IMG/VR virus record: IMGVR_UViG_3300026263_000200
Reading direction: 5' to 3' (one strand)
Length of the DNA: 64,000 nt
From: a virus
In this document: positions 2,617 to 45,400 of the stretch, piece after piece
Layout of the letters: every line of letters starts with the position of its first letter
Numbering within the stretch: the stretch's first letter is position 1
Translations under genes and position numbers: made by a program
The notes under the pieces: model-generated
What the model saw: only the letters and a program-made list of their open reading frames with translations
Told to the model about the DNA's origin: nothing
The model's database searches: none

Positions 2617-5106
2617 ATGAACTTTTATAAAAATGTAATAGAACATAAAGGCAAACTACTTGTTAGAGGTGTAAGAGATAGCAAAGAGTTTAAAGAGAGG
2701 ATTAATTTTTCTCCAACATTATATTCAGTATCACAACATCAAGAAGAATTTAAATCATTACAAGGACATAATTTAAGACCTATTACTTTTTCATCTATTG
2801 ACGCTGCTCGTAGATTTAAACGTGATGTTGCTACTCAAAATGCACCTGTTTATGGACTTGATAGATTTCATTATCAATACATCAATGAAGAGTATCCAAA
2901 ACAAGTTAAGTGGTCAAAAGAATTAATTAAAATATTTACATTAGATATAGAATGTACCTGTGAAAATGGATTTCCAGAAGTAAATAATCCAATTGAAGAA
3001 CTATTATGTATTACAGTTAAGAATCAATCAAACAAACAAATTATAACGTGGGGTATCGGTGAGTTTAAAACCTTACGTACAGATGTAACTTATATTCAAT
3101 GTACAGATGAACGACATTTAATAATGGAGTTTATGAAATTCTGGTTGAAGAATTATCCAGATGTTATTACAGGTTGGAATACTAAATTCTTTGACTTACC
3201 TTATTTAATGAATAGAATTCAATTAGTTGCAGGTGCTAAAGTTTCAAATAGAATGTCGCCTTGGAACATAATTCATAAAGAAGAAATAATTGTAAGAGGT
3301 AGACCTAATACATATTATTCATTGTATGGAATTGCAATGTTAGATTATCTTGATTTATATAAATGGTTTATACCAGTAAGACAAGAGAGTTATAGACTAT
3401 CTCATATAGGTGAAGTAGAACTAGGCGAAACTAAAATAGAAAATCCATATGATACTTTTAAAGATTTCTATACAAAAGATTATCAAAAATTTGTAGAGTA
3501 TAATATTCAAGACGTTGAAATAGTTGATGGTTTAGAAGACAAGTTAGGTCTAATTGATTTATCTTTAACCTTTGCATATGAAACTAAAGTAAATTATAAC
3601 GATATTTTTTCACAGGTAAGAGTTTGGGATACATTAATTGCAAACCACTTGATGACAAAAAAGATTTGTGTACCACCTAGGGAAGACCACATAAAGGACA
3701 CCAAGTATGAAGGTGCGTATGTGAAAGAACCTAGATTGGGTATGCAAAAATGGGTGGTGTCTTTTGATATCAACTCTCTTTATCCACATATTATTGTACA
3801 ATATAATATTTCTCCCGAAAAGATATTAGGTGTTAAACCATCTGGTGTTTCTGTGAATAAAATGCTTGATAAGAAGACACCCCTAGATTATTTAAAAACA
3901 GAAGGTGCGTGTATAACACCTAACGGTGCAATGTTTAAAAATGATAATCAAGGTTTCTTACCTGAAATGATTGAAAAGATTTATAAAGACCGTGTGATAT
4001 ATAAGAAACGTGAATTAAAAGCAAAGAAAGAATATCAAAATAATCCAACAACAGAATTAAAAAAAGAAATTGCTAGGTGTCATAACGTACAATGGGCAAG
4101 AAAGATTGCGTTGAATAGTTGTTATGGTGCAATAGGTAATCAATACTTTAGATACTATGATATAGCACAAGCAAGTGCTGTAACTACAGCAGGTCAATAT
4201 ATTATAAGAAATATAGAACAAAAAGTAAATGAATATCTAAATCAAATATTACAAACACACAATGAAGTAGATTATATATTAGCGTCTGATACAGATTCAA
4301 TTTATGTATCGTTTGATAAACTTGTAGAGAAGACTTGTAAAAATAAAACAGACCAACAAGTATGTGATTTTCTTGCTAAGGTATGTGATAATAAATTAGA
4401 ACCTTTTATTGCAAAACAATTTGAAGATGTTGCAGATTATACTAACGCATTTAAGAACGCAATGGTTATGGCACGTGAAGTTATTGCGAACAAAGGTATA
4501 TGGGTTGCGAAAAAAAGATATATGTTAAATGTATTAGACGAGGAAGATGTGAGATTATCTGAACCTAAATTAAAGATTATGGGTATAGAGGCAATTAAAT
4601 CTTCAACTCCACAAGTATGCCGAGGTAAGATTAAAGAAGCAATTAAAATAATTATGTCAAAAGAAGAATCTGATTTACATACTTTCATTGCAGATTTTAA
4701 AAAAGAATTTATGCAATTACCTCCAGAGAAGATATCATTTCCAAGGTCTTGTAATAATATGAGAAAATATGGTAGTAGTAAAGATGTGTTTATTAAAGGC
4801 ACACCTATACACGTTAAGGGTGCATTGATTTATAATCATCAAATAAAACAATTTAAATTACAGAATAAGTATCCTTATATTCAAGAAGGAGATAAGATTA
4901 AATTTATTAAATTGTTAGAAGCAAATCCATTTAAGTTTGATGTGATTAGTTATGTAACTCAATTACCAAAAGAGTTTAACTTAAAAGAATATGTTGATTA
5001 TGAATTACAATTTGAAAAGACTTTCCTAGACCCTATGAGATTTATATTAAATTCAATAGGTTGGGAACACGAAAAGAAAGCAAGTCTGGAGGCGTTCTTT
5101 GGCTAA
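2617..5106 (+). CDS. 43: family B DNA polymerase (T4 gp43)
   Basis: Exo motif LDIEC, pol motifs SFDINSLYP, KIALNSCYG, SDTDS; C-terminal clamp-binding SLEAFF. Confidence 0.97.
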   Translation: MNFYKNVIEHKGKLLVRGVRDSKEFKERINFSPTLYSVSQHQEEFKSLQGHNLRPITFSSIDAARRFKRDVATQNAPVYGLDRFHYQYINEEYPKQVKWSKELIKIFTLDIECTCENGFPEVNNPIEELLCITVKNQSNKQIITWGIGEFKTLRTDVTYIQCTDERHLIMEFMKFWLKNYPDVITGWNTKFFDLPYLMNRIQLVAGAKVSNRMSPWNIIHKEEIIVRGRPNTYYSLYGIAMLDYLDLYKWFIPVRQESYRLSHIGEVELGETKIENPYDTFKDFYTKDYQKFVEYNIQDVEIVDGLEDKLGLIDLSLTFAYETKVNYNDIFSQVRVWDTLIANHLMTKKICVPPREDHIKDTKYEGAYVKEPRLGMQKWVVSFDINSLYPHIIVQYNISPEKILGVKPSGVSVNKMLDKKTPLDYLKTEGACITPNGAMFKNDNQGFLPEMIEKIYKDRVIYKKRELKAKKEYQNNPTTELKKEIARCHNVQWARKIALNSCYGAIGNQYFRYYDIAQASAVTTAGQYIIRNIEQKVNEYLNQILQTHNEVDYILASDTDSIYVSFDKLVEKTCKNKTDQQVCDFLAKVCDNKLEPFIAKQFEDVADYTNAFKNAMVMAREVIANKGIWVAKKRYMLNVLDEEDVRLSEPKLKIMGIEAIKSSTPQVCRGKIKEAIKIIMSKEESDLHTFIADFKKEFMQLPPEKISFPRSCNNMRKYGSSKDVFIKGTPIHVKGALIYNHQIKQFKLQNKYPYIQEGDKIKFIKLLEANPFKFDVISYVTQLPKEFNLKEYVDYELQFEKTFLDPMRFILNSIGWEHEKKASLEAFFG

Positions 5107-8022: not shown

Positions 8023-9048
8023 ATGAAAGATTTTCTAAAAGAAATAATTAAAGAAACAGGTAATGAATTTGCTAGTTTAGCAAGTGAAGGAATCACAGCA
8101 GGTGATGTATCTTCATTTATAGATACAGGTTCTTATTCTTTTAATGCTCTTCTATCAGGTTCAATTTACGGTGGGTTGCCAGGCAATAGAATTACAGCAA
8201 TTGCAGGTGAGGCAGCAACTGGTAAAACATTTTTCGCATTAGGTATTTTAAAAAATTATTTAGAAAAAGACAAAGACGCAGGCGTAGTCTTGTTTGAATC
8301 AGAAAACGCAGTATCAAAAGATATGATAGAGGCGAGAGGTGTTGATAGTAAAAGAGTTGTAGTAGTACCAGTATCAACTGTACAAGAATTTAGAACACAG
8401 GCAATAAAAATTTTAGACAAGTATTTAGAACAAGACCCAAAAGACAGACAACCTTTAATGTTTGTATTAGATAGTTTAGGTATGTTATCTACTACAAAAG
8501 AAATGACAGACACAGGAGAGGGTAAAGAAACAAGAGATATGACAAGGTCACAAATTGTCAAATCTACATTTAGAGTTTTAACACTTAAACTAGGACAAGC
8601 AGGTGTTCCTATGTTAATGACCAATCACACATATGATGTTATTGGTTCTATGTTCCCACAAAAAGAAATGGGCGGCGGTTCAGGATTGAAATACGCTGCT
8701 TCAACAATCATCTATCTAGGTAAACGAAAAGAAAAAATCGGTACAGAAGTAGTTGGTAATATTATTCATTGCAAAACATATAAGTCAAGAATCACAAAAG
8801 AAAATTCTCAAATTGATGTTAAGTTAACCTATAAAAAAGGACTAGATAAGTATTATGGTCTTCTTCAACTTGGTGAAGAGGCAGGTATCTTTAAGAAAGT
8901 ATCAACAAGATATGAAATGCCTGATGGTTCTAAAGTATTTGGTAAAACAATCAATGATGAACCAGAAAAGTATTTTACAAAAGAAGTATTAGATAAAATA
9001 GATGAACACGCAAACCAAAAATTTACATACGGATCAGACGAAGAATAA
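8023..9048 (+). CDS. uvsX: UvsX RecA-like recombinase
   Basis: Walker [27 protein letters not shown]. Confidence 0.95.
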
Positions 9049-9316: not shown

Positions 9317-9860
9317 AAATTATATTAATGTTTATGATGATGTATTAGAACCAAATCAATGTCAACACTTGGTTGATAAGTTTGAAGATTCAAAACATCA
9401 ATGGACTAAAACACAATTAAAAGGTCATAGGTCTTTTACAGAAATTAATATAAATTTACATTCAGATTGGCAAGAATATGTGGACATAGTATATAAAGTA
9501 TTGAGACCATATGTTGATAAGTATTGTGAAGATAATAATATAGATAGATTAAAACAATGGCCGAATAAATTTGGTTTTGAACAAATACGTTTTAAGAAAT
9601 ATGAAGTTAATAAGGAAGATGAATTTCAAGAACACGTTGATGTTATGGATTATGCAAGTGCAAAAAGATTTCTTGTACTCTTTTTATATTTAAAAGATAA
9701 TATAGAAGGTCATACTTCTTTTCCTGAATATGATATGAAAGTTAAACCAAAAGCAGGTAGATTATTAATGTTTCCACCTTTGTGGACTTATAAACATATA
9801 GGACATAAACCAATAAAAGAACCTAAATATATAATAGGAAGTTATTTGCATTACGTATGA
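9306..9860 (+). CDS. 2OG-Fe(II) oxygenase (prolyl-hydroxylase-like)
   Basis: HVD...H triad, FLYL, GRLLMFPP, KYII. Confidence 0.85.
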   Translation: MENKNYINVYDDVLEPNQCQHLVDKFEDSKHQWTKTQLKGHRSFTEININLHSDWQEYVDIVYKVLRPYVDKYCEDNNIDRLKQWPNKFGFEQIRFKKYEVNKEDEFQEHVDVMDYASAKRFLVLFLYLKDNIEGHTSFPEYDMKVKPKAGRLLMFPPLWTYKHIGHKPIKEPKYIIGSYLHYV

Positions 9861-11230
9861 GCGAAAGATTAGAAACAACTATATTAAATAATCTCTTCTA
9901 TCAAGAAGACTATGCTAGAAAAGTATTACCTTTTTTAAAAGAAGATTACTTTGGTTTAAGAACTGAAAAGATTTTATTTACAGAAATATATAAATTTGTA
10001 GAGAAATATAATAATCTTCCAACAAAAGAATCAATCTTAATAGAATTAGGACAAAGAAAAGATATTAATGAAGAGGAACATATTCAATTAAATGATTATG
10101 TTAATTCTATAGGTAAAATAGATTCCGATCCACAATGGTTGTTAGATACAACTGAAAGATTTTGTAAAGATAAAGCAGTACATAATGCTGTATTAGATGG
10201 TATTAGAATTTTAGATAAGAAAGATAGTAAGAGAACTCCAGAAGCAATACCTAGTATATTAGCAGACGCATTAGCAGTATCTTTTGACCAACATATTGGT
10301 CACGATTATATAGAAGACGCTGATGATAGATTTAAATGGTATCATACTAAAGAAACAAAATATCAATTTGATTTAGATTATATGAATAGAATAACCAAAG
10401 GTGGTATTCCTAGTAAGACTTTGAATATTGCATTGGCAGGTACAGGTGTAGGTAAGTCTTTGTTTATGTGTCATTGTGCAAGTGCTTATTTGGCACAAGG
10501 TTTAAATGTTTTATATATAACTTTAGAAATGGCAGAAGAAAGAATTGCTGAAAGAATTGACGCAAACTTATTAGATGTAACTATGGACGATTTACATACA
10601 ATGCCAAAAGATTTATATGATAATAAGATAGAGAAGATAAGACAAAAGACTGGTGGTAAATTAATTGTTAAAGAATATCCAACAGCGTCTGCTCATAGTG
10701 GACACTTTAGAGCATTGTTTAATGAACTTTCATTAAAGAAAAGTTTTAAACCAGATGTAGTGTTCATAGATTATTTAAATATATGTGCGTCAAGTAGATT
10801 TAAAGGTGGTAATATAGGTTCTTATTTCTATATCAAAGCAATTGCAGAAGAATTAAGAGGACTTGCAGTAGAATTTAATGTACCATTGTTTTCTGCTACA
10901 CAAACAACAAGAACTGGATTTATGAGTACAGACATAGGACTAGAAGATACAGCAGAAAGTTTTGGATTACCAGCAACAGCAGACTTTATGTTTGCAATAA
11001 TATCAAATGATGATTTAGAAGCATTAGGACAGTTAAAGATTAAACAATTGAAGAATAGATATAACGACCCAGGAATTAATAGGTCATTTATTATAGGTGT
11101 TGATAGAGCCAAAATGAGATTGTATGATGTAGGACAACAAGCACAAAACATAGTAGATTCAAACCAAAAGGAGGAGGTTCCGAAACAAAAAGATATCGCT
11201 TACGATAAGTTTTCGGATTTTAAAGTATGA
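9857..11230 (+). CDS. 41: replicative DNA helicase (T4 gp41)
   Basis: AGTGVGKS, ITLEMAEE, IDYLN, SATQTTR, ESFGLPATAD. Confidence 0.96.
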   Translation: MSERLETTILNNLFYQEDYARKVLPFLKEDYFGLRTEKILFTEIYKFVEKYNNLPTKESILIELGQRKDINEEEHIQLNDYVNSIGKIDSDPQWLLDTTERFCKDKAVHNAVLDGIRILDKKDSKRTPEAIPSILADALAVSFDQHIGHDYIEDADDRFKWYHTKETKYQFDLDYMNRITKGGIPSKTLNIALAGTGVGKSLFMCHCASAYLAQGLNVLYITLEMAEERIAERIDANLLDVTMDDLHTMPKDLYDNKIEKIRQKTGGKLIVKEYPTASAHSGHFRALFNELSLKKSFKPDVVFIDYLNICASSRFKGGNIGSYFYIKAIAEELRGLAVEFNVPLFSATQTTRTGFMSTDIGLEDTAESFGLPATADFMFAIISNDDLEALGQLKIKQLKNRYNDPGINRSFIIGVDRAKMRLYDVGQQAQNIVDSNQKEEVPKQKDIAYDKFSDFKV

Positions 11231-12629: not shown

Positions 12630-13865
12630 ATGGCATACGAAGTTTCAGAAATAACTACAGCAACAGCATTACAAAAAACTGTACCAGAATTAGAAAAATT
12701 AACTAGAATTAATCAGTTAGTTAATTTTATAAAGGCAGGTAAGACTGGTAGGGGTATTGAGTTTGGTGATCCAAACACCAAAAACCAATTCTTAAAAAAA
12801 ATGGATCCAACTGTTCCAAAAAATCTTTCAGATATGGCAGTAGGTATATCAGCTGCTATAGCAATAAGAAAATATATGAAAGCTCCAAGTGGTAGATTAA
12901 CTGTATATATGACAGGTAATGTTTGGTCACCAGAAATTAGGGATTTTCAAGTTAGTGCTTTTGGATTTGCAGATTATAATTCAGCAGATTTGGTAGTCAC
13001 CAAAGATAAGAAAAAATTTTATGGATTTTCTTTAAAGAAAAAAGCATTTGTTAAAGATTCCGATCCAACTCTTATTAATAAAGCATTTGCTTCCACACTT
13101 GAAGGTTCAAGATTTGAGAAATTAAGACAAAAATTAGAAAAAACTAGAAGAGATTATTTTGCTAGTGTAGTTAAAGAGGCAGTAGCGAAAAAAATAATAT
13201 TGAAAAAAGATATTAAAAATTTTGATAAGTTAGATAATCAAGAATTATATGAAGCTAAAAATAGAGATAGAGACCAATTTGATAGAGCTTATATTAATAC
13301 AAAAGGATATGCTACATCTCCTAAAGGATATCTAGACTCTAATACTAGAGACCCAAAAAGTATGAGATACTTTGTTAATAATAAACTGTATGATACTAAA
13401 AATAATCCATTGTGGAAAGTTTATAAAAAAATAATTAATGAAAATTCAGAAGAGTTAGCAGAAGTTTTACTTAATATAATATTAAAGGTAAAATTATTTG
13501 ATAAACTCAATACAAAAAAATTAAAAGGTAAAGAGTTTGATTTTGCTTTAGTAACTGGTATAGGTACTGTTGTTAAAGAAAAGGTTATGATTTCACCTGG
13601 AAGAGTAGACTCATTAAAAACAACCTTATGTGGATTAACAAGAATTGATAAGAAATACAAAGGCGAGTTTGAAGTTGTGCAAAATCCTGATACACTTAAT
13701 AAATCAGACGCTGCTAAAATATTCTTTTTATTAAGAAAGGGCAGTCTTAATATGATAGATTTACGAGTTAGATATAAAGGAGATTTTGTTATTAAACCAC
13801 AATTTCAAGGTTATATGACACCTGAATTTAAAGCAGAAATTGCTAAAGAGTGTGCAGGTACTTAA
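12630..13865 (+). CDS. hypothetical protein, possible restriction-endonuclease-like fold
   Basis: SADLVV...GFSLKKK resembles PD-(D/E/S)XK motif; own late promoter. Confidence 0.45.
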   Translation: MAYEVSEITTATALQKTVPELEKLTRINQLVNFIKAGKTGRGIEFGDPNTKNQFLKKMDPTVPKNLSDMAVGISAAIAIRKYMKAPSGRLTVYMTGNVWSPEIRDFQVSAFGFADYNSADLVVTKDKKKFYGFSLKKKAFVKDSDPTLINKAFASTLEGSRFEKLRQKLEKTRRDYFASVVKEAVAKKIILKKDIKNFDKLDNQELYEAKNRDRDQFDRAYINTKGYATSPKGYLDSNTRDPKSMRYFVNNKLYDTKNNPLWKVYKKIINENSEELAEVLLNIILKVKLFDKLNTKKLKGKEFDFALVTGIGTVVKEKVMISPGRVDSLKTTLCGLTRIDKKYKGEFEVVQNPDTLNKSDAAKIFFLLRKGSLNMIDLRVRYKGDFVIKPQFQGYMTPEFKAEIAKECAGT

Positions 13866-13867
13866 AT

Positions 13868-13875
13868 TATAAATA
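13868..13875 (+). promoter_or_regulatory. T4 late promoter
   Basis: TATAAATA in intergenic gap. Confidence 0.8.
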
Positions 13876-13939: not shown

Positions 13940-15154
13940 ATGTTTAGTTTTAAAGGTTTTACCACAAACGACAAGAATACACACCTAGAACACCTAGAAG
14001 ATGATATAATCAATAGAGGTTCATCTGGTGGAGTTAATGCAATTAACTTTCTAAAATCAGTAAGAGATATGCTCGCAGGTCACTCGGGAGCAAAAATCAA
14101 TACTACTGTTAAATGGGATGGGGCACCTGCTATTATATGTGGTGTCAATCCTGAAAACGGTAAATTCTTTGTTGGTACTAAATCAGTATTCAACGTTACC
14201 CCAAAAATCAATTACACAACAGCAGACATAAGACGGAACCATTCTGGTGCCGTTGCTCAAAAACTATCAGTATGTCTTAATCATTTATCCAGTTTAAATA
14301 TTAAACAAATTTTACAAGGTGATTTATTATTCACTAACGATACAAAATCAGCTTCAATTGATGGTGAAAAAATGATAACCTTTACACCAAATACAATCAC
14401 ATATGCAGTACAGGCAAGTAGCAATATTGGTAAGAAGATTGCTCGTGCTAAAATGGGTATAGTATTTCATACAATGTATACTGGTAAAGATATGAAAAGT
14501 TTAAATGCAAGTTTTGGTAATGTTAGAGGGTCAGGTAATTCAAGAGTATGGGTAGCAAGTGCTTCTTATAAAGACGACTCTGGTTCTATTACATTTACTA
14601 AATCAGAATTGAATATATTTAATGCTCAATTAAGAATGGCAGAAGGTTCATTAGGTAGAGCGAGTAAGATATTAGATGAAATGACTAAACGTGCTAGTGA
14701 CCCTTTATCTGTAGGGTTTAGATTAAAGTCATTTTTTAATCATTACATTAGAAATAACAAAGGTAGTATGGCAAAGGTTGCTGTATTGCAAGATATGTTT
14801 AGAGATTATTATGAGAACGTTTTGAAGACAGAAATTGACGCAAGAAAAACTGAAAAAGCAAAACAAAAATATAGAGATATATTAGCAAATGGATTAAAAT
14901 TTATTAATCAAAATAAATCAGGTTTATATATGGCGATAGCAAGTCACGTAACTTTAGGCAATGCGAAGAACACATTGATACAAAAGATGAATCAAATTCA
15001 ACAGATAGGACACTACATTAAAACTGGAACAGGTTATAGAGTAACAGCACCTGAAGGATATGTTGCAGTAGATAGAGTAGCGGGTGCAGTAAAAATAGTA
15101 GATAGATTAGAATTTAGTAGGGCAAACTTTACGTTGCCAAAAGGATGGAAATAA
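13940..15154 (+). CDS. conserved T4-like protein with RNA-ligase-like covalent nucleotidyltransferase motifs
   Basis: TVKWDG (motif I KxDG), LQGDLLF (III), EGYVAV (IV), AVKIV (V). Confidence 0.65.
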   Translation: MFSFKGFTTNDKNTHLEHLEDDIINRGSSGGVNAINFLKSVRDMLAGHSGAKINTTVKWDGAPAIICGVNPENGKFFVGTKSVFNVTPKINYTTADIRRNHSGAVAQKLSVCLNHLSSLNIKQILQGDLLFTNDTKSASIDGEKMITFTPNTITYAVQASSNIGKKIARAKMGIVFHTMYTGKDMKSLNASFGNVRGSGNSRVWVASASYKDDSGSITFTKSELNIFNAQLRMAEGSLGRASKILDEMTKRASDPLSVGFRLKSFFNHYIRNNKGSMAKVAVLQDMFRDYYENVLKTEIDARKTEKAKQKYRDILANGLKFINQNKSGLYMAIASHVTLGNAKNTLIQKMNQIQQIGHYIKTGTGYRVTAPEGYVAVDRVAGAVKIVDRLEFSRANFTLPKGWK

Positions 15155-17887
15155 ATGAAGTTTAAAGAATTTTTATTACAAGAAGGTATATATGACCCAG
15201 GTATATTTAAGGCCTTCTTTATGGCAGGAGGACCTGGTAGTGGTAAATCATTTATCGCTAATAATACTTTTGTAGGTTCTGGATTAAAATTTGTAAATTC
15301 AGACCAAGTATTTGAAAGAGGTTTAAAGAAGGCAAATCTTTCAGATAAAATGCCTGACCAAGAAAAATATTTTAGAGATATTATAAGAAATAATGCAAAG
15401 GGTACAACAAAAAGACAATTAGATACTTATGTAACTGGTAGATTAGGTTTAGTTATTGACGCAACTGGAAGAGATTATGGAAGAATAAGTGCAGAATATA
15501 ATCAACTACACTCATTAGGTTATGATTGTTATATGATATTTGTTAACACAACATTACCTGTTGCGTTAGAAAGAAATCAAATTAGAAGTAGAACTATACC
15601 AGAATATATTGTTAAATCATCTTGGGAAAAAGTACAATCTAATATAGGTAAGTTTCAAAGATTATTTGGTCAATCAAATTTTATTGTAGTAGATAACAAT
15701 AGGTCAGATAAAGAACTAGTGTCACAAACTTTACAAAACTGTGACAGATTAGTTAGACGATATATGAGGCAGCCAATTAAAAGTTATCTTGCAAAAACTT
15801 GGATGGCAAAAGAAAAAATGTACAAAAATAAATTAAATGAAAGTATTATAGACGCTCCTAGAAATACATATGCACCTGGAGTTTTTGATGACTATGAAAC
15901 TAAAACACCTAGAATTAAACCTGGTGTAAGAGAAATAATTGACAATCAACTTAAAGAATTTGGTAAAGAATACCCGATTATAAAAGTTAGTTTAGTAGGT
16001 TCTATACTTACAAAGAGATATAGAAAGGACGCAGATTTAGATTTTAATGTACTGTTTGATGTACCTGTAGATAAACAAGAAGAAGAGAGATTAAGATTAT
16101 CTCATAAGTATCTATCTGCTAAAAGTCCAGAAAAGATTAATGGTAAATTAATACCTGGTACACAACACCCTATTAACTATTACATCATTACTGATCCTAT
16201 AACTCATCAAGACCAAGAGGATAAAGCAGACGCAGTATTTGATTATAGAGGTAATGTATTTACTAAAAGACCAGCAGACTATACGTTTGATATGAAATTA
16301 TATATGTCAGCATATCAAAGAAAGGTACAAGAGATAGATGTAGTTAAAGGAGAATTAAAAAGAGATATTATAGACTATGATGAACTAAAAGATTTACAAC
16401 CAGATGATATTTTAAATTTACAAGAAAAGATTAATGAGAAGTTAGAAGAGATTGAACAATCTATAAAAGATATTGTTGATATTGGAGATGATGTAATGAC
16501 TGCTAGAAGAGCAGCGTTTGATTCTGATATGACACCAGAACAAATTAAAACGTTTAGTATTAAAAATAGATTACCTAAAAATGTAGTCTATAAGATGTTA
16601 GAGAAGTATCATTATTTAAAATTCTATAAGAAATGTAAAGAGATATTAGATGATAATAAAGTTACAGACGCTGAAATAGATAGTTTAAAATCTGAAGCAG
16701 TTGCTGATAAGTCTATTGCAATTACATTTGGAAGATTTAATCCTCCTACAATAGGTCACGAAAAACTTATTAATAAAGTTGTAAGAGCAGATAGAAATTA
16801 TAAAATCTATATCAGTAGGTCAGAAGATAGTAAAAAGAATCCATTATCTCCTAGAGATAAATTATCCTTTATGAAAAAAATGTTTCCACAATATGCTAGA
16901 AACATTGAAATCAATACAACAAATATGATTTTAGATTTAGCTACTATGTTATACAATAAAGGTCATACTATTTTAAAATTTGTTGTAGGTAGTGATAGAG
17001 TAAGAGAATTTGAAACGATACTTAAAAAATATAACGACCAGAAAAATAGACACGGATACTATAACTTTAAAACAATAGATGTTATATCTGCTGGAGAGCG
17101 TGATCCAGACGCTGAGGGTGCTTCAGGTATGAGTGCGAGTAAGATGAGGGATGCTGCTACTAAAGATGATATAGCGTCATTTAAGAGAGGACTACCATCT
17201 CAATTTAGAGATGTTGATGGACTGTTTAAAGCGGTCAGAAAAGGTATGGGTATAAGAGAAGACTATAAACCAGATACTTCAAAACCTGTTATGACATTAG
17301 GACAGTTTGAACAGAAACAAGTTAGAGACCTATACGTTAGGGAGATGATATTCAATATCGGAGACCAAGTCAAGTATCTTAAAGAAGATAAACAAGGTAA
17401 GGTAGTACGAAGAGGTACGAACTATGTTGTACTAGAAGATACAAATAATAATTTACACAAATGTTGGATATGGGATTGTATTCCAGTTGCCGCTGATAAA
17501 GAACCATTGTTGAGAGAATATAACCTAGACATTGATTACGGATTTGAAGCAGTTGAAACGATACCAGTACCAAAAACATACTCACAAATTAAAGATAGTT
17601 TTGAAATAGGTGCTGATTATGCTAATCATTGTAAGCAAATGACACCAGGAGAGAAAGAGGACGCACCTCCTGTTGACTCAAAAGACCGTGGAAAACCTAC
17701 TGATACATACATATCACGACCAGGTAAGGCAACGGATGCTAAAGTTGGTGAGGATAAATTGACCGAGAAGGAAGTAAAAGAATGGTCAACTTCAGTTTCA
17801 GTAATAGATAAATATAAGGAACGATATAAAGAAGAGTGGAAAGCGAAACTAAATGAAGTAGTCGCTAAGATGATAGAGAAACTTTAG
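15155..17887 (+). CDS. multidomain protein: P-loop kinase + Pol-beta-like nucleotidyltransferase + HxGH cytidylyltransferase-like domain
   Basis: GGPGSGKS and VIDATG; LVGS...DADLD; TFGRFNPPTIGH and MSASKMR. Confidence 0.8.
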   Translation: MKFKEFLLQEGIYDPGIFKAFFMAGGPGSGKSFIANNTFVGSGLKFVNSDQVFERGLKKANLSDKMPDQEKYFRDIIRNNAKGTTKRQLDTYVTGRLGLVIDATGRDYGRISAEYNQLHSLGYDCYMIFVNTTLPVALERNQIRSRTIPEYIVKSSWEKVQSNIGKFQRLFGQSNFIVVDNNRSDKELVSQTLQNCDRLVRRYMRQPIKSYLAKTWMAKEKMYKNKLNESIIDAPRNTYAPGVFDDYETKTPRIKPGVREIIDNQLKEFGKEYPIIKVSLVGSILTKRYRKDADLDFNVLFDVPVDKQEEERLRLSHKYLSAKSPEKINGKLIPGTQHPINYYIITDPITHQDQEDKADAVFDYRGNVFTKRPADYTFDMKLYMSAYQRKVQEIDVVKGELKRDIIDYDELKDLQPDDILNLQEKINEKLEEIEQSIKDIVDIGDDVMTARRAAFDSDMTPEQIKTFSIKNRLPKNVVYKMLEKYHYLKFYKKCKEILDDNKVTDAEIDSLKSEAVADKSIAITFGRFNPPTIGHEKLINKVVRADRNYKIYISRSEDSKKNPLSPRDKLSFMKKMFPQYARNIEINTTNMILDLATMLYNKGHTILKFVVGSDRVREFETILKKYNDQKNRHGYYNFKTIDVISAGERDPDAEGASGMSASKMRDAATKDDIASFKRGLPSQFRDVDGLFKAVRKGMGIREDYKPDTSKPVMTLGQFEQKQVRDLYVREMIFNIGDQVKYLKEDKQGKVVRRGTNYVVLEDTNNNLHKCWIWDCIPVAADKEPLLREYNLDIDYGFEAVETIPVPKTYSQIKDSFEIGADYANHCKQMTPGEKEDAPPVDSKDRGKPTDTYISRPGKATDAKVGEDKLTEKEVKEWSTSVSVIDKYKERYKEEWKAKLNEVVAKMIEKL

Positions 17888-17895
17888 AGAGAGAA

Positions 17896-18318
17896 ATGGC
17901 AACTAAATTCAAAGAATACGTACATAACCTATACATTGCTGAAAGCTCGGCTATGGTACTAAAGGGAGTTGACGATTACCTTAAAATTGCTAGGGAAAAA
18001 ATTAAAAGACACCCACAATTTGCTAATTTATATAGAGACCAAAAACGTGATGTAGCCACTAGCATAGGTGGTAAGTATATAAAGATTTGGGATACTGAAC
18101 GAGGACAAAGAAGAGCTATACACGCTTTTGTAGATAAAATTACAGGAGATGTTTTAAAGGCGGCTGGTGTTAATGCTCCAGCAAAAGGTGCCAGAGGAAA
18201 TGTTTTAGACAAAAAGTATATGGACTCATTAAACCGTGTATTTGATACTCACGGTGGACATTTATATAGCAGACACAGTTTATCATACAATTTCAAGAGA
18301 GATAATAAATTCAAATAA
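17896..18318 (+). CDS. conserved phage protein with internal-protein-like N-terminus
   Basis: KFKEY...IAE leader; HAFVDKITGDVLKAAG..APAKGARGN motif. Confidence 0.55.
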   Translation: MATKFKEYVHNLYIAESSAMVLKGVDDYLKIAREKIKRHPQFANLYRDQKRDVATSIGGKYIKIWDTERGQRRAIHAFVDKITGDVLKAAGVNAPAKGARGNVLDKKYMDSLNRVFDTHGGHLYSRHSLSYNFKRDNKFK

Positions 18319-18319
18319 A

Positions 18320-19495
18320 ATGGGCACGTTAAAAGAAGAACTAGAAAGATGGAAGTCAAGTAGGTATAGAAAACCTATGAGTGTTGCTCTTGCAGAAGTA
18401 AAAGAAAGACACGATTGCTCTAAAGTACACCCTGGTAAAAGACACCAAGAGTGGATGAATACTGAACCAGTTAAACACGTTAAAGAAGAAAGATTTGATG
18501 AAGGTAGAATGAAAGATATCTACACGATGGATCAAGAAGGTAAATCTGCTGAAGATATTGCCAATAGATTAAACATAAAAGTATCAACTGTTAAATCCAT
18601 TTTAGGAGAACAAGTTGACACATTACAGGAATTTACAGACAGTCAAATATTACAACTTAAAAAAGATTATGCACCACTAAAAGGAAAAACAATTAGTGGA
18701 ACAAATGCTAATAAGTTGATGAGAATATTTGATAAGTTTGATAAGAATAAACAGCTTTTAGTTAAATTATTAAAAGCAAACATTCCATTTGTGTCAATGT
18801 TAGCGCAAGCAAGACTCATTTCAAGACACGGAGCAAACGCTTCCCAGTTGGCACAAATGAGAAAAGAAGAATTAGAAGAAGCAAAATCACCATTTAGATT
18901 ATCTTATGACGACAAGTATGGCAAACACGCAGGTTTTGAAGACGCAAAAACATTACAAGATTTACAAAACAAAGCACAGAAATTAAGAGCTAAAGGATTT
19001 AAGATTAATAAAATGGGTAGAAATACATCACCTGTTGAACAAAAACTACCAGAACCAGAAGGTAAAACAGAAGTACCAGAAGCGTTTGCTGTACAAGTTA
19101 CTAAAATGGATGGTGGTAAATTTATACACGGCAGTTATAAAACTAAAGCAGAAGCAGAAAAATGGATTAAGTGGTATAAAACTGGTGACGTAAGACAAAC
19201 TAAATCAATAGAAATTGTTAAAGAAGGTGTTTCAGATTTTTATACACCTAAAATGAGTGATAAACAAATTGCTAATATTAAGAACGTATGGAAGAATAAA
19301 AAAGCAACAGATGTAACCGACGCTGTTAGACAAATGATTAAGAGAATGGACGTACCTACACAACTAGCAATTAAATCAGCAGACATACCACACATATCAA
19401 AATTAATTGAAATTGCTACTCACGGTCACGGTCCTAGAGCAACCTTTGAGAGATTGTGGTTGAAACATAAACGAGGAGATAAAGCAGGTAAATAA
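18320..19495 (+). CDS. putative internal head protein with HTH-like segment
   Basis: ATG at 18320; GKSAEDIANRLNIKVSTVKSIL; modular segments separated by V/L-x-E sites. Confidence 0.5.
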   Translation: MGTLKEELERWKSSRYRKPMSVALAEVKERHDCSKVHPGKRHQEWMNTEPVKHVKEERFDEGRMKDIYTMDQEGKSAEDIANRLNIKVSTVKSILGEQVDTLQEFTDSQILQLKKDYAPLKGKTISGTNANKLMRIFDKFDKNKQLLVKLLKANIPFVSMLAQARLISRHGANASQLAQMRKEELEEAKSPFRLSYDDKYGKHAGFEDAKTLQDLQNKAQKLRAKGFKINKMGRNTSPVEQKLPEPEGKTEVPEAFAVQVTKMDGGKFIHGSYKTKAEAEKWIKWYKTGDVRQTKSIEIVKEGVSDFYTPKMSDKQIANIKNVWKNKKATDVTDAVRQMIKRMDVPTQLAIKSADIPHISKLIEIATHGHGPRATFERLWLKHKRGDKAGK

Positions 19496-22704: not shown

Positions 22705-22816
22705 GATTTTTTATGAAGATAAAGACTTGGACGATTTTGAGGAAGAAGTAATCGCTGACTGTCCTGAAGAGGACACAGCAAAAGAAAAGGAAAAAACAAA
22801 AAATGAAAACGTTTAA
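22688..22816 (+). CDS. 42-aa acidic peptide with internal-protein-like leader
   Basis: manually translated MIKKFKIFYEDKDLDDFEEEVIADCPEEDTAKEKEKTKNENV fills gap between neighbours. Confidence 0.45.
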   Translation: MIKKFKIFYEDKDLDDFEEEVIADCPEEDTAKEKEKTKNENV

Positions 22817-23228
22817 ACAACACATAACAGAAGACGGCAAGATGGCTGGAACAGCAACATCTAATGCAGTTGAAGATGGTAATTTAGGCGCTCATAACAT
22901 TTCTGATCCAGAAGTATTAAATAGAGTTAATGCTTTTGTAGGTTCTATTGCAGACGTAGAATTCATTAAACCACAACAAGCGGTAGATAGTTTGAGAGAA
23001 AAACTAAACCGTGTTGGTTTAACTGTTTCTCCAGTTACAATGGAAGGAACATCAGGAAAAGTTAGTGCGAAAGTTAGTCAATTTGGTGGAAGATTTGGGA
23101 AAGATACCGACGGTTCGGATTTAAATGATGATGGAATATCACACAAAAAATCTGGCGGTCTAAATTTAGAAGTTAGTTATGAAACTTTAAAGAACGGTGC
23201 ATCCAAGGTCTACGCTAAGTTAGTGTAG
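22803..23228 (+). CDS. putative internal head protein
   Basis: N-terminus MKTFKQHITE resembles T4 IP capsid-targeting sequence. Confidence 0.6.
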   Translation: MKTFKQHITEDGKMAGTATSNAVEDGNLGAHNISDPEVLNRVNAFVGSIADVEFIKPQQAVDSLREKLNRVGLTVSPVTMEGTSGKVSAKVSQFGGRFGKDTDGSDLNDDGISHKKSGGLNLEVSYETLKNGASKVYAKLV

Positions 23229-26838: not shown

Positions 26839-28467
26839 CTATTTAATAGAATAACAATTAATCTTTTCTTTTTTACCTTTAACAGTACAAATACCTAGTT
26901 TATAAAACTTAAAGTCTAAATCTTTTTTAGTATTTTGAGATATTACTATTGTAGTATTGAAATCTTTACTCTTACCTTCCAATCTACTTGCCAAATTAAC
27001 AGCGTCACCAATAACAGAATAATCAAAACGTTGTTCAGACCCCATATTACCTACAAGACACTCGCCAGTATTGATACCTATACCAATGTTTAAAGGTGGG
27101 TCAAACTCTCTACTCTTATTCATCTCCTTAACTGCTCTTCTCATTTGAAATGCAGATAGTACTGCTAGTTTTTTGTGTTCTGGATTATCAAGTGGTGCAT
27201 TCCAAAATGCCATTATACAATCACCCATATACTTATCAATAGTACCACCATTTTTTAATATTATCCCCGTCATTGCAGTTAAAAATTTGTTAACATATCT
27301 GGTAAGTTTTTCTGGATTACCTTTCATAGATTCCGATATAGGAGTAAAGCCACGTATATCAGAAAATAAAAACGTCATTTCTTTTCTTTCACCACCAAGT
27401 TTTAATAGAGATGGATTGTTTTGTAGTTTCTTAACCATATCTGGAGATAGATAGTGTTCAAATTGTTTTTTAATTTGTAGTCTTAATTTATTTTCTTTTG
27501 AATAGTTATTGTATGTTAACTGACCCCATATAATAGAACCTATTACAAGAGGACTAAACCAATCAGTTATGATTAAGTGTTGCGTCCATAGATAAGAACT
27601 TGCAAGTGTTAAATCAAATAAGTATCCACCAAACCATATCGCAGACCACATCACACCACATCTAGGTATAACTATGAGAAAGAATAGAGTACCTAATAAT
27701 ATAAAACCAAATTCAGCATATGGTAACCAATAAGGTCTACTAATAAAATTACCTGACAATAAAGTTTCTGTACTGATTGCCATAATTTCGTGTGTGTTTT
27801 TTAAACCATTAGGAGTAGTTACAAACGTAGAACCTTTGAACGTAGTACCTATGAAAACTATTTTACCTTTTACAGACGACCAATCTTTATCAGTAAAATC
27901 TATTCTAGGAATATGGTGTCTGAAATCTATCCAAATAGTATCTTCTGCTGATGTTTTTGCATTGATAACTTTTAAGATAACTTCAGGTATAGAATTATCA
28001 AGAGGTAATTTTCTTATAGTGCCATCTATATCAACTGGCACACTTACGTTGCCTATTGCTATTGCTTTACGTGAGATACTTTGTAGATTTTTTACTTCAT
28101 CCGTTTCAGTAAGTATGACTGGATATTTTGAAATCATTTTTAAAAACATTTCATCACCACCTAATCTATCTTTATGTGGGAAGACTACTTGAAGAACTAC
28201 TAGAGCGGCACCATTTTTATAAGCATTAATTATGACACGACCAAGTAAATCTCTCTTCCACGGCCATTGCCCATTCTTTTTTAATGCTTTGTCTGATATG
28301 TCTACTAGGACTAAACTCTTTGATTCATAATTTGTACCAAATTTTTGGTAGAAATCAAAGGTGTTTAGTTTTGCTGTTTGTAGTAGTACTGGATTTGATA
28401 AGTATATTCCAAGTAATATAATCAAAGTCAAATATACAGTCCACGATTTAGCCAATATTTTAATCAT
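26839..28467 (-). CDS. CHASE2-domain membrane adenylate cyclase (class III)
   Basis: N-term TM, CHASE2 motif GQWPWKR, three TMs, cyclase motifs FSDIRGFT, DKYMGDCIMAFW, GIGINTG, DYSVIGDAVNLASRLE. Confidence 0.92.
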   Translation of the reverse strand: MIKILAKSWTVYLTLIILLGIYLSNPVLLQTAKLNTFDFYQKFGTNYESKSLVLVDISDKALKKNGQWPWKRDLLGRVIINAYKNGAALVVLQVVFPHKDRLGGDEMFLKMISKYPVILTETDEVKNLQSISRKAIAIGNVSVPVDIDGTIRKLPLDNSIPEVILKVINAKTSAEDTIWIDFRHHIPRIDFTDKDWSSVKGKIVFIGTTFKGSTFVTTPNGLKNTHEIMAISTETLLSGNFISRPYWLPYAEFGFILLGTLFFLIVIPRCGVMWSAIWFGGYLFDLTLASSYLWTQHLIITDWFSPLVIGSIIWGQLTYNNYSKENKLRLQIKKQFEHYLSPDMVKKLQNNPSLLKLGGERKEMTFLFSDIRGFTPISESMKGNPEKLTRYVNKFLTAMTGIILKNGGTIDKYMGDCIMAFWNAPLDNPEHKKLAVLSAFQMRRAVKEMNKSREFDPPLNIGIGINTGECLVGNMGSEQRFDYSVIGDAVNLASRLEGKSKDFNTTIVISQNTKKDLDFKFYKLGICTVKGKKEKINCYSIK

Positions 28468-28522: not shown

Positions 28523-28981
28523 ATGAGATTAATTACCATTATTTTAACAGTATTATTGTTAGGTTCTAGTGCTTATGCAAGTGAATTAGGATTTAAATTC
28601 CATAGTCCATCATTTTCTGGTAATGGAAAGTCATCACACTATCTAACGATAGAGAACATAGAGAAAACTAGAAAAGACGCTATAAAAGCAGCAAATAAAG
28701 CGGCGGCAGATAAAGCGGCGGCAGATGCTAAATCAACATCTATAGCAAAATTCAAAGCAAATATAGAGTCAAGATTTTATACTGCTCTTGCAAAACAAAT
28801 TACAGACAATGTATTTGGTACTGATGGTCTTCAACAAGACTCAGGTACATTTACAAATCCAGTTGGTGGAGAAACAGTTGAGTGGACAACACCATCAGGT
28901 ACAGGTAATGTCGTAGTAACTGTCACGGAGTCCGATGGAACTGTAACGACATTTACAATGCCTAAAGAGGACAATTCGTAA
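28523..28981 (+). CDS. csgF: curli assembly protein CsgF-like
   Basis: signal peptide then ELGFKFHSPSFSGNG, matching CsgF N-terminal F-x-(N/S)-P-x-F-x-G motif; adjacent to csgG. Confidence 0.75.
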   Translation: MRLITIILTVLLLGSSAYASELGFKFHSPSFSGNGKSSHYLTIENIEKTRKDAIKAANKAAADKAAADAKSTSIAKFKANIESRFYTALAKQITDNVFGTDGLQQDSGTFTNPVGGETVEWTTPSGTGNVVVTVTESDGTVTTFTMPKEDNS

Positions 28982-30135
28982 TGTTTAAATACATAAGTAT
29001 ATTTTTACTAACATTATTGTTAGTTGGATGTGCAGGTAAACCAAAGTTTGATATAAGAACTCAAACAGTTGCTTATAAAGACTTGTCAGTTATATCAGCA
29101 CCGAAAGGTGAACCAATTATAATTGCTGTCTATGACTTTTTAGATATGACAGGACAAAAGAAACCTGGTGGCAACTTTGCGTCTATGAGTACAGCAGTAA
29201 CTCAAGGTTCATATCAGTTGTTGATTAAAGCATTACAAGACGCAGGCGAAGGCAAATGGTTTAGAGTAGTAGAACGAGCAAGTTTACCAAGTCTATTACA
29301 AGAAAGAAAATTAATACGTTCTACAAGACAACAAGTTAATGGAGAAGGTGCAGAACCATTACCACCATTACTATTTGCAGGTGCATATATAACAGGTGGT
29401 ATTGTAGGATATGATAGTGATATTAAATCAGGTGGTTTAGGTGCTAGAATATTAGGTATTCAAAGCAACAAACAATTTAGACAAGATATAGTTACTATTA
29501 TATTAAGACTAGTCAATGTACAAACTGGTGAAGTTGTACTATCAACAACAGTTGAAAAGACTATTGTATCAACAATGACTGGTGGAGATATATTCAAGTA
29601 CTTTGATACTGATACAATGTTATTAGAAGTTGAAGCAGGATATGCTAAGAACGAACCAGTTACACTTGCAGTTAGAAAAGCAATTGAAAAAGGTGTAGTT
29701 GATGTTATTAATTTAGGTGCAAATAAAGGACTATGGGAGTTTGCTGTTGAAATAGTACCAACAAAAGATTTAAAAGTAGTACAAGATGATATTACAGTTG
29801 ATATGGGCGAAGTAATGCCAGAAAAAACTTATGAAGACTTTAAGAAAGAAAAGAAAGCTAGAAAAGAATTAAAGAAAGCACAAAAACTTGAAGTAAAAAA
29901 TTATAATAAAGCAAATGGAACAAAGTTTAAAACTTGGGACGAATATCAAGCACATTTAGAACATTTAGCGGCACTTGAAGCTAAAGAAATAGAAAAAGAA
30001 GAACGTAAGAACGGTATACAAGATAAAATAACAGAAGAAGAAGAGTGGAACCAAGTAGACGAAACAGTAGAGGAGAACAAGTCAGATGAAAAAGATAGTA
30101 ATGGCAATAGTGATTCTTCTAGCGACAACAATTAA
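28981..30135 (+). CDS. csgG: curli secretion channel CsgG-like lipoprotein with charged C-terminal extension
   Basis: lipobox LVGC; AVYDFLDMTGQKK, STAVTQG, WFRVVER, LLQERKLIR, GGIVGYD, NEPVTLAVRKAIE. Confidence 0.92.
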   Translation: MFKYISIFLLTLLLVGCAGKPKFDIRTQTVAYKDLSVISAPKGEPIIIAVYDFLDMTGQKKPGGNFASMSTAVTQGSYQLLIKALQDAGEGKWFRVVERASLPSLLQERKLIRSTRQQVNGEGAEPLPPLLFAGAYITGGIVGYDSDIKSGGLGARILGIQSNKQFRQDIVTIILRLVNVQTGEVVLSTTVEKTIVSTMTGGDIFKYFDTDTMLLEVEAGYAKNEPVTLAVRKAIEKGVVDVINLGANKGLWEFAVEIVPTKDLKVVQDDITVDMGEVMPEKTYEDFKKEKKARKELKKAQKLEVKNYNKANGTKFKTWDEYQAHLEHLAALEAKEIEKEERKNGIQDKITEEEEWNQVDETVEENKSDEKDSNGNSDSSSDNN

Positions 30136-41504: not shown

Positions 41505-42363
41505 AGAACTATTTAAAAAAAATATATATTCAGTAGAGATAGGTATTCATAACTATTGTAATAGAACTTGTACATTTTGTCCTTTATCAAGAAAAGATGT
41601 AAATAGAAGAGTGAAAAGAAATATGACCTTTATGACGGATGCAATGTATTTAAGTATATTAAATCAATTAGCAGAAATAGATTTTAATGGTCGTATAGAT
41701 TTTACAAGATATCACGAACCACTTTCAGATAAAGAAGCAATATTAGAAGCAGTAAGAGCAGCTAAAAGAATTATACCTAAAGCAAAGATTAATATTAATA
41801 CCAATTCAGATTATCTTAATAAAGAGTACATACAAGAGTTGATAGAAGCAGGCGTAGATAATATAGCAATGCAAGCGTATTTAAAAAATGGTGCAACTGT
41901 TTATAATGAAAACGAAGTATTTGAACGTATTAACCATATATGTGATAGAATAGGTGTAGAAAGAATTAATCCAGATGAACATAAAAATAAAGATTGGATT
42001 ATATACAGACTGCCACAATTTAAAGGTTCTATTCACGCAAGAAATTATTGGAAGAATGGAACTAATAGAGCAGGTAGTGTGCCAATAGATTTAGGTTATA
42101 CACGAACACAACCTTGTACTAGTATGAATAAAGGAATTTTTATAGAGTTTGATGGTTCAATGACTATCTGTTGTGATATGTTGACACCAGAAGTCCATAG
42201 TAAATGGGCAGTAGGTAATTTAAAAAAAGAACCTAGTTTGTTTTTAAACTATACTAGTGATTACTATACAGAATGGAGAGAAAGAATTAATAGAGCAGAT
42301 TGGTTTAAAGGTTCTCCTTGTATAGTTTGTAAAAGGGATGTAAGAGGTAAAGAGGCAAGATAA
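41485..42363 (+). CDS. radical SAM enzyme with SPASM/twitch-like C-terminus
   Basis: CNRTCTFC motif; C-terminal PC...CCD...GN...CIVC. Confidence 0.85.
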   Translation: MNLEQSKELFKKNIYSVEIGIHNYCNRTCTFCPLSRKDVNRRVKRNMTFMTDAMYLSILNQLAEIDFNGRIDFTRYHEPLSDKEAILEAVRAAKRIIPKAKININTNSDYLNKEYIQELIEAGVDNIAMQAYLKNGATVYNENEVFERINHICDRIGVERINPDEHKNKDWIIYRLPQFKGSIHARNYWKNGTNRAGSVPIDLGYTRTQPCTSMNKGIFIEFDGSMTICCDMLTPEVHSKWAVGNLKKEPSLFLNYTSDYYTEWRERINRADWFKGSPCIVCKRDVRGKEAR

Positions 42364-44177: not shown

Positions 44178-44185
44178 GAGAAATT

Positions 44186-45388: not shown

Positions 45389-45400
45389 TTAAGGAGAAAA

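Follow-up and report, generated by a model that had tools for sequence, protein, structure and literature searches.

A ligase-like protein and a three-enzyme fusion in a late pelagimyophage gene pair: candidate capsid-loaded enzymes acting on nucleic-acid ends

What use might a T4-like marine phage have for a ligase-like protein encoded directly ahead of a large fusion of three putative nucleotide-handling enzymes? This arrangement is found in a stretch of 64,000 nucleotides (IMG/VR record IMGVR_UViG_3300026263_000200), referred to below as the window, which is part of a T4-like marine myophage genome with approximately 30% G+C. The closest isolate is the Pelagibacter phage HTVC008M (Kyanoviridae). 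The two genes lie on the + strand and encode P0001 (13940–15154, 404 aa), assigned by Pfam to DUF6267, and P0002 (15155–17887, 910 aa), whose three enzymes were recognized with Pfam and phrog profiles. The stop codon of P0001 (15152–15154) is followed without a gap by the ATG of P0002 at 15155. An earlier note on this DNA, made from the letters and a list of open reading frames (ORFs), had already described the two as abutting, and had suggested a late, virion-delivered kit for RNA repair or nucleotide counter-defence.

Our answer is a tentative one, which we hold with somewhat less than even confidence: the two genes would be transcribed together as a late unit in a T4-like pelagimyophage, and their products would be loaded into the capsid, injected into the next host and used there to process and rejoin nucleic-acid ends. 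We infer the packaging of these particular proteins, their cleavage, their substrates and their biological purpose from the evidence given in the following sections.

The ligase-like protein and its fused partner

P0001 matches the Pfam family DUF6267 (PF19782) over its full length with an E-value of 4e-122. Motif I reads KWDG (residues 58–61; 14111–14122, + strand), with Lys58 as the presumed nucleotidyl-lysine. It is followed by QGD at residues 126–128, FxPNTIxY at residues 148–155, motif IV EGYV at residues 372–375 and motif V VKIVDR at residues 384–389 (motifs IV and V together at 15053–15106, + strand). The ligase motif set I, III, IIIa, IV and V is present in the expected order, motifs III, IIIa and V being assigned by position and not from superposed coordinates. 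In an alignment of 98 relatives with 35–47% identity, Lys58, Asp60, Gly373 and Lys385 are invariant, and Gly61, Gln126, Gly127, Asp128, Glu372 and Arg389 are conserved to at least 90%. The ligase-type signatures that the earlier note had picked out (KWDG, QGD, EGYV and a motif V lysine) are all in place.

An AlphaFold2 model of P0001 (predicted local distance difference test score, pLDDT, of 91.7; predicted template modeling score, pTM, of 0.87) was compared exhaustively with 48,161 representative chains, and the top 12 matches were ligases. In a second comparison with the full PDB all 50 matches listed were ligases, with Z-scores up to 8.4. The Naegleria RNA ligase NgrRnl came first (Z = 8.4; 8.1 against the representative chains), followed by T. 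brucei REL1 (7.9; 7.8), the ligase domain of fungal Trl1 (7.8), T4 Rnl1 (7.7; 7.3) and T4 Rnl2 (7.3; 7.1). RNA ligases as a group scored between 7.0 and 8.4 in the full PDB, archaeal Rnl3 enzymes between 6.0 and 6.7 and DNA ligases at most 6.2. Among predicted viral structures, annotated RNA ligases were the first matches outside the DUF6267 family. The ligase alignments span residues ~12–215 and ~355–400. An all-helical insertion, delimited by the secondary structure of the model (residues 221–353; 14600–14998, + strand), is located between motifs IIIa and IV. The model contains no OB domain.

Searches of the PDB with P0001 or its family profile (the latter at E-values up to 10) yielded no ligase, the matches being spurious ones to low-complexity or helical segments. 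Pfam assigned P0001 to DUF6267 only and to none of the named RNA ligase families (Rnl1, Rnl2, Rnl3, Rnl5, Trl1). Foldseek with the whole model was dominated by helical-bundle noise and placed ligases at probabilities of 0.3–0.44. Judged by its model, P0001 is predicted with high confidence to adopt the fold of ligase-type covalent nucleotidyltransferases, with RNA ligases as the nearest structures. DUF6267 would then be a new family of RNA-ligase-fold covalent nucleotidyltransferases with a presumed intermediate in which Lys58 carries a nucleoside monophosphate (K58-NMP). The family is outside every named ligase family. The ligase fold expected for the ORF at 13940 was thus recovered, with RNA ligases ranking first among the matches listed; membership in the T4 Rnl1 or Pnkp families had to be given up, as there was no sequence-level match and no fused HAD 3'-phosphatase.

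P0002 starts with a P-loop kinase module (residues 1–229; 15155–15841, + strand), which matches AAA_33 over residues 22–162 (E = 3.6e-11) and has a Walker A motif, GGPGSGKS, at residues 25–32. Further matches of this module were Zeta_toxin (1.5e-5), SKI (7e-5) and the polynucleotide kinase profile phrog_505 (1.5e-5); the best sequence match of known structure was seryl-tRNA(Sec) kinase (E = 0.03). The second module (residues 230–500; 15842–16654, + strand) is a nucleotidyltransferase of the Pol-beta type with matches to PF01909 (E = 1e-7), PF18765 (8e-5) and the MTPAP-like palm PF22600 (3e-3). It carries the Gly-Ser pair at residues 282–283 and DLD at residues 294–296, and in the Atlas it lies closest to clusters of viral PF01909 proteins with lengths of 257–307 aa. 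PF10127, the RlaP family, was not among its matches in the Pfam scan. The third module (residues 505–702; 16667–17260, + strand) is of the (T/H)xGH type and is referred to as the HxGH module in the following. It is covered by the "cytidyltransferase" profile phrog_395 (residues 514–838, E = 6e-69) and contains GRFNPPTIGH at residues 526–535 and MSASKMR at residues 659–665. The C-terminal region (residues 703–910; 17261–17887, + strand) gave no Pfam match at E-values up to 5 and no lead in the Atlas. In related loci, 39 ORFs carry it in conserved form beside their HxGH module. Pfam and phrog scans found no phosphatase domain in P0002. Profiles, motifs and the model described next bear out the three-domain anatomy proposed in the earlier note, except for the literal HxGH signature, which reads T-I-G-H (residues 532–535).

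For the HxGH module, the excised domain served as query for standalone relatives, and the resulting alignment of 45 sequences was folded (pLDDT 89.9). The best fold matches were the adenylyltransferase for nicotinamide mononucleotide (NMN) from M. jannaschii (NMNAT, 1f9a, Z = 13.0), a putative Vibrio nicotinic acid mononucleotide adenylyltransferase (NaMNAT, 12.9), NadM (12.9 and 12.2) and NadD (11.7–11.9). PPAT (11.5), NadR (11.1), FAD synthetase (10.0) and glycerol-3-phosphate cytidylyltransferase (9.8) followed. Foldseek returned NadD and PPAT at E ~1e-5. Sequence similarity was marginal: Pfam CTP_transf_like scored 16.5 bits, which is below the cut-off, and the sole PDB sequence matches were to PPAT (E = 0.7). 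Since the nearest folds are NMNAT, NadM and NadD and Foldseek agrees, the module is modeled as an NMN/NaMN-adenylyltransferase-like enzyme with PPAT close behind, a fold from which the acceptor cannot be read.

The two proteins are linked well beyond the window. DUF6267 comprises 2,691 clusters at 50% identity in metagenomes, and approximately 470 phages with known sequence, among them most cyanomyoviruses, pelagimyophages and Methylophilales phages, carry it together with an HxGH partner. We surveyed 80 viral contigs with sufficient flank, fetched by family alignment. In most of them an HxGH gene lies directly downstream of DUF6267, while kinase and Pol-beta modules occur in about 25. Relatives carry the modules of P0002 as one, two or three genes. 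The full kinase-Pol-beta-HxGH fusion of the window was seen in 2 loci, a kinase followed by a Pol-beta-HxGH fusion in ~16, Pol-beta-HxGH alone in 3, a kinase followed by HxGH in 1 and in HTVC008M (where the kinase is a separate gene), HxGH alone (the cyanophage type) in ~30, and an HxGH-kinase order in 1. At the threshold used, no HxGH match was obtained in six loci whose downstream flank exceeded 2.5 kb.

Fusions tell the same story. Among the best 150 DUF6267 representatives, 37 have an extra segment of at least 90 residues, and 22 of these segments fall into one HxGH-related similarity cluster. They stand either before or after DUF6267, so that the two enzymes are fused in both orders; S-PM2, for instance, has a 591-aa DUF6267-HxGH fusion. 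A kinase fused ahead of DUF6267 was found in a single case (P0184). Because the HxGH gene lies downstream in most loci and the kinase and Pol-beta modules are confined to a subset of them, the comparison identifies the ligase-like and HxGH enzymes as the conserved core, with the kinase and the Pol-beta enzyme as lineage-specific additions. The co-occurrence of these domains in relatives, on which the earlier proposal depended, is therefore well founded. A full-text literature search for DUF6267 and for "cytitidyltransferase" gave no match.

One relative can be cultured and should be useful for tests on the family. The Stenotrophomonas phage DLP_6 (L005, 4137–8028; also L007) encodes a leader-bearing DUF6267 protein (MMKFTQFLAE) and a 722-aa HxGH protein, and has a separate canonical ATP-dependent DNA ligase besides.

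Late promoter motif and leaders of the capsid-targeting type

A TATAAATA motif, the T4 late-promoter consensus, is located at 13868–13875 on the + strand, 72 nt before the ATG of P0001. The window holds eight copies (at 7594, 12608, 13868, 19499, 21553, 21939, 28492 and 60016), every one of them on the + strand, with the − strand having none. Shuffles would lead one to expect 19 copies, and elsewhere the motif is depleted. All eight lie 13–72 nt upstream of the start of a + strand ORF, and six of them fall wholly within the 5.8% of the window that is not covered by + strand ORFs. Nearly all pelagiphage-like loci likewise have the motif 64–100 nt ahead of DUF6267; at any position within 150 nt upstream of that gene it is found in 30 of 73 loci. 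The predicted late expression of P0001 and P0002, as claimed in the earlier note, holds on this evidence, and the eight motifs offer a clean map of candidate late promoters across the window.

In T4, proteins are directed into the capsid by a capsid-targeting sequence (CTS), MKTYQEFIAE (PMC8442874). Targeting depends on residues 4 and 7 of the CTS, and its cleavage by the gp21 protease on residues 8 and 10; when position 10 is altered, cleavage can be lost while targeting persists (PMC9026906). P0002 begins with a CTS-like leader, MKFKEFLLQE (15155–15184, + strand), whose L-Q-E stands right before the kinase core GIYDPGIF. The leader of P0001, MFSFKGFTTND (13940–13972, + strand), is degenerate: Phe4 and Phe7 are kept, and [LI]8 and Glu10 are lost. 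Having the targeting positions but not the processing positions, P0001 would at best be targeted and remain uncut.

Leaders of this kind are widespread in the family. The pattern M-x-[ST]-F-K-Q-[FY]-[LI]-x-E opens 59 of the 150 DUF6267 representatives (consensus M-K-S-F-K-Q-F-L-T-E) and occurs at 0.12% of their internal positions. In relatives, each module that is encoded separately has its own leader, which ends where the conserved core begins. In all 20 kinase modules taken from related loci, [LI]-x-E stands immediately ahead of the core G-[VL]-Y-D-P. Separate Pol-beta-HxGH genes begin like MRFKDFIKE, followed by SIIDIPR; a glutamate stands directly before S-I-I-D-I-P-R in all 20 such genes, and 13 of the 20 read [LI]-x-E. 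Cyanophage HxGH genes begin in the style of MKFKQFLSE, then alanine, and one locus (L072) begins MKTYQRFMTE.

The same element appears to be preserved inside P0002. At the border between the kinase and Pol-beta modules the sequence MYKNKLNE is followed by SIIDAPR, with K-L-N-E at residues 226–229 (15830–15841, + strand). We regard K-L-N-E as a possible relic leader and a candidate site for the prohead protease; with an intact L-x-E at this border, cleavage may split the 910-aa protein at this point. A Peptidase_S77 protease (gp21 type) is encoded by HTVC008M, S-SZBM1 and DLP_6. A second internal position, I-R-E after the HxGH domain (residues 700–702), was considered as well, and no claim is made for it: of 53 relatives, only 6 have the corresponding G-M-G-[LI]-x-E.

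The HxGH protein has turned up in published proteomes of virions. It was detected with 2 peptides in S-SZBM1 (PMC9146016) and with 3 peptides in S-CREM2 (PMC10665884), and kinases and cytidyltransferases are often detected in cyanophage virions, with a warning about carry-over (PMC10665884). In S-SZBM1 the leader-bearing HxGH protein is on the virion list, and the leaderless DUF6267 protein, which starts with the conserved core, is absent from it. No better indication is available that the leader acts as in T4 than this agreement between leader and detection. The short T4-style tags suggest that the capsid takes up the enzymes and that they are delivered to the next host by injection. For the packaging claim of the earlier note, comparative support was found in the leaders on modules of relatives, the gp21-type protease and the two virion proteomes; the leader of P0001 itself falls short of it.

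Other genes of the window have similar N-termini. A RimK-like ATP-grasp protein (71–1483, + strand; phrog_2599, "ribosomal protein S6 glutaminyl transferase") has the CTS-like leader MQISNFKDYITE and may be another packaged enzyme. A small protein (22803–23228, + strand) begins with MKTFKQHITE, a near-perfect CTS form. Directly after P0002, a DUF7717 protein (17896–18318, + strand) has the leader-like start MATKFKEYVHNLYIAE, ending Y-I-A-E. To judge from these starts, the late block with the small protein and the DUF7717 proteins may encode several internal head proteins. The DUF7717 gene and a helix-turn-helix (HTH)-like ORF (starting at 18236 or 18317 and ending at 19495, + strand) would be co-transcribed with the pair (17896–19495), ahead of the next late promoter at 19499.

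Possible roles of the enzyme set

Combining the fold assignments with the leaders, we suggest the following course of events. P0001 and P0002 would be loaded into the prohead by their N-terminal leaders, a gp21-type head protease would trim these leaders and the products would be injected together with the DNA. The pelagimyophage lineage would have added a PNK-like kinase and a Pol-beta nucleotidyltransferase and fused them to the HxGH enzyme; the fusion probably separates once more at K-L-N-E, the site it has retained. The set would process and rejoin broken nucleic-acid ends, more likely of RNA than of DNA, as soon as the next infection begins. The kinase would phosphorylate 5'-OH ends, the Pol-beta enzyme would rebuild 3' ends and the ligase-like enzyme would seal them. 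The HxGH enzyme could either make or regenerate a dinucleotide AMP donor resembling nicotinamide adenine dinucleotide (NAD), or otherwise activate phosphate for the ligase-like enzyme. The Pol-beta step has a counterpart in RlaP, a nucleotidyltransferase associated with RNA ligases which rebuilds damaged RNA 3' ends (PMC12776372). A sequence of healing, rebuilding and sealing seems reasonable for the pelagimyophage lineage because of the RNA-ligase-like fold, the kinase of the AAA_33/PNK/Zeta group with a tRNA-dependent kinase as its best match of known structure, and this precedent.

A number of points weigh against this proposal. Neither the window nor the nearest related fragment (G001) contains a head protease gene. 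The virion detections rest on 2–3 peptides without N-terminal mapping, and the S-CREM2 authors allow for carry-over of abundant late proteins (PMC10665884). Cyanophage DUF6267 proteins have no leader and are missing from the S-SZBM1 virion list, and the P0001 of the window is without the [LI]-x-E part. The Z-scores of the P0001 ligase domain are moderate (~8) and no sequence profile ties it to a known ligase; we accept the fold nonetheless, because the matches are unanimous and the motif set is invariant. Finally, the set has no linked 3'-phosphatase or cyclic phosphodiesterase, which leaves the heal-and-seal pathway incomplete. No known RNA repair system employs an HxGH enzyme, yet this enzyme is the universal partner here. 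A plain heal-and-seal model does not explain why the HxGH enzyme, and not the kinase, is what universally accompanies the ligase-like protein.

The main rival starts from this partner. The simplest link between a ligase-like and an HxGH enzyme would be a nucleotide cofactor, with NAD+ as the AMP donor and NMN being returned. One possibility, which we consider unlikely, is a cargo built around NAD: a true NMN adenylyltransferase, a NadR-like ribosylnicotinamide kinase and a ligase-fold protein that uses NAD+ or runs the reverse reaction. It would keep NAD+ or NAD-dependent ligation going where host NAD+ is low or destroyed by defence NADases. NMNAT, NadM and NadD are indeed the top folds for the HxGH module, although PPAT lies within 1.5 Z of the NMNATs and the TxGH motif is as in PPAT. 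NadR, which unites an NMNAT with a P-loop kinase, was also matched, and kinase and HxGH modules are fused both in the window and in L087; the families matched by the kinase, however, are AAA_33, Zeta and those of PNK type, and the NadR kinase family is not among them. That the ligase-like and HxGH enzymes are fused in both orders would fit an exchange of product and substrate (NAD+ to the ligase, NMN back), but a domain-Ia-like module for NMN binding could not be demonstrated. Four complete relatives lack a DNA ligase of their own and presumably rely on the NAD-dependent LigA of the host. No partner of the Nampt or ADP-ribose-recycling kind was seen.

A more specific form of the cofactor link, to which we give a small probability, makes DUF6267 and the HxGH enzyme a self-recharging ligase preloaded in the capsid, in pelagimyophages along with the kinase and the 3'-end transferase. 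The NMNAT-like enzyme would produce NAD+ or an adenylyl-dinucleotide from ATP, the ligase would use it and the mononucleotide would be returned. Ligation would then be independent of the cofactor pool of the host. If true, this would mean a new family of RNA/DNA ligases and a new class of injected cargo for repair or counter-defence in the most abundant myophages of the ocean.

It is similarly improbable that DUF6267 is the DNA ligase of the phage itself, replacing T4 gp30, which is absent from these phages, in the joining of Okazaki fragments or the repair of nicks in a genome that has been injected or damaged by UV. The location of the genes between gp41 helicase and gp61 primase/NrdAB, as in cyanophages, would suit such a role, and HTVC008M, S-SZBM1, DSL-LC02 and Sf-CH1b are without a ligase of PF01068 or PF01653. 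DLP_6, on the other hand, has DUF6267 in addition to its canonical ligase. A late promoter and capsid-targeting leaders fit a replication enzyme poorly, P0001 has no OB or DNA-binding domain, and RNA ligases rank above DNA ligases in every fold comparison. A plain replication-module enzyme, neither late nor related to the virion, had also been considered from the gene order gp43-UvsX-gp41...gp61-NrdAB; it was dropped because the late promoter and the leaders were found.

There is a slight chance that the injected enzymes modify the host in the manner of T4 Alt, nucleotidylating or phosphorylating host proteins or small molecules, with transfer of NMP to a target other than nucleic acid. Packaged T4 enzymes do act on host proteins (PMC9026906), Pol-beta nucleotidyltransferases and Zeta-type P-loop kinases include modifiers of proteins and small molecules, and HxGH enzymes are known on small-molecule or amino-acid acceptors only; every solved structure resembling P0001, however, is a polynucleotide ligase, and its motif set is a complete ligase set. 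Just as doubtful is the idea that these are ordinary cytoplasmic late enzymes, with the CTS likeness being a feature of translation initiation or folding and the proteome detections contamination: the few peptides, the caveat of the authors, the missing DUF6267 protein in S-SZBM1 and the degenerate P0001 leader are in its favor, but a leader accompanies each separately encoded module, [LI]-x-E sits exactly at the core start in 20 of 20 kinases and the pattern is enriched about 30-fold at N-termini over internal positions.

Should the proposal of capsid-loaded end-processing enzymes be true, it would add a new ligase family and would mean that marine phages widely employ capsid targeting of the T4 type for the injection of entire enzyme sets. 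A long-unexplained core gene of cyanophages, the "cytidyltransferase", would become testable, and the leader might be put to use directly as a tag for packaging in marine phage systems.

Gene neighborhood and comparison with known systems

Upstream of the pair the window encodes gp43 DNA polymerase (2617–5106), followed by a methyltransferase, UvsX (8023–9048) and gp41 helicase (9857–11230), the latter followed by a 2-oxoglutarate-Fe(II) oxygenase and an HNH endonuclease (11763). Downstream of P0001 and P0002, beyond several uncharacterized ORFs and the gene at 21045, are gp61 primase (33985), NrdA and NrdB. Cyanomyoviruses keep the DUF6267/HxGH pair at the equivalent place.

Two neighbors were considered as further partners and rejected. 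The uncharacterized gene directly upstream (12630–13865, + strand, 411 aa, phrog_3060) has its own TATAAATA late promoter. It was found in only 4 of the 80 loci. It adjoins DUF6267 in a few distant loci and in cyanophages, yet is absent upstream of DUF6267 even in a 95% identical relative (L008); it looks like a mosaic insertion beside the HNH endonuclease gene. The gene at 21045, which the earlier note had enlisted as a HAD phosphatase, does have a HAD-type start (DxDGV). Its role as the missing phosphatase of the kit was abandoned: it belongs to the next late unit with its own promoter and is too short at its start to accommodate a leader, and among the 80 loci only 2 have it within 6 kb of DUF6267, as does HTVC008M in its vicinity. 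Instead of a Pnkp phosphatase it matches the deoxyribonucleotidase family (phrog_2643, 5'(3')-deoxyribonucleotidase, E = 1.4e-27), and it has no PDB match.

Three further features of the window were recorded. The sole long reverse-strand gene (26839–28467, − strand, 542 aa, phrog_35576) coincides with a 2-kb bin in which the GC skew falls to approximately zero. Four consecutive ORFs (28523–33361, + strand; phrog_20175, phrog_37870) have N-termini like those of signal peptides or lipoproteins, e.g. a start that ends in LLLVGCAG. A cluster of sugar-nucleotide or lipopolysaccharide-type genes (42363–50408, + strand) comprises two aminotransferases, a nucleotide-sugar epimerase and a dehydrogenase.

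Among known systems, ATP-dependent RNA ligases share with P0001 the nucleotidyltransferase fold (Z = 7–8.4 over 170–198 residues), the KxDG lysine of motif I and the order of motifs III, IIIa, IV and V. Most of them likewise have no OB domain, and association with a PNK-like kinase is common to Trl1, Pnkp and the P0001 system. Unlike these ligases, DUF6267 has no sequence match to any Pfam or PDB ligase family, and its helical domain of ~130 residues is an internal one, placed between motifs IIIa and IV, and not an N- or C-terminal appendage. Its motif III has Asp in place of Glu, motif V has a single lysine (VKxVDR), a conserved HLEHxED element is present near the N-terminus, and the family is constantly accompanied by an HxGH transferase.

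T4 Pnkp with Rnl1, bacterial Pnkp/Hen1 and the RlaP loci also combine a ligase with a P-loop kinase, and a Pol-beta nucleotidyltransferase accompanies RlaP systems as it does here; the T4 enzymes are, like the present set, encoded by a phage. In contrast to these systems, the window genes have no phosphatase or phosphoesterase domain, are predicted to be late and leader-tagged instead of early, and include an HxGH enzyme. Their Pol-beta module resembles PF01909 and not PF10127, and its likeness to RlaP would be one of function and not of family membership.

With the T4 internal proteins IPI-III and with Alt, the window proteins have in common an N-terminal leader of approximately 10 residues, in which aromatic residues about 3 apart are followed by [LI]-x-E, and a late promoter of the T4 type. 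A gp21-type protease (in related genomes) and a homologue detected in virions complete this resemblance. The window cargo differs in consisting of nucleotide-transfer enzymes of up to 910 aa and not of small basic proteins or an ADP-ribosyltransferase, and the leader of its DUF6267 protein has lost the processing residues. NMNAT, NadM, NadD, NadR and PPAT, finally, share with the HxGH module the Rossmann-type fold (Z = 11.5–13; NadR 11.1), the GRFxPxTxGH motif and a second motif of the SxSxxR type. The module is set apart from NMNATs and PPAT by its long conserved C-terminal region and by being fused or adjacent to a ligase-fold protein. On the whole, the evidence in part supports a combination of known kinds, in which a new ligase-fold family and an HxGH transferase would be delivered by the capsid-targeting route of T4.

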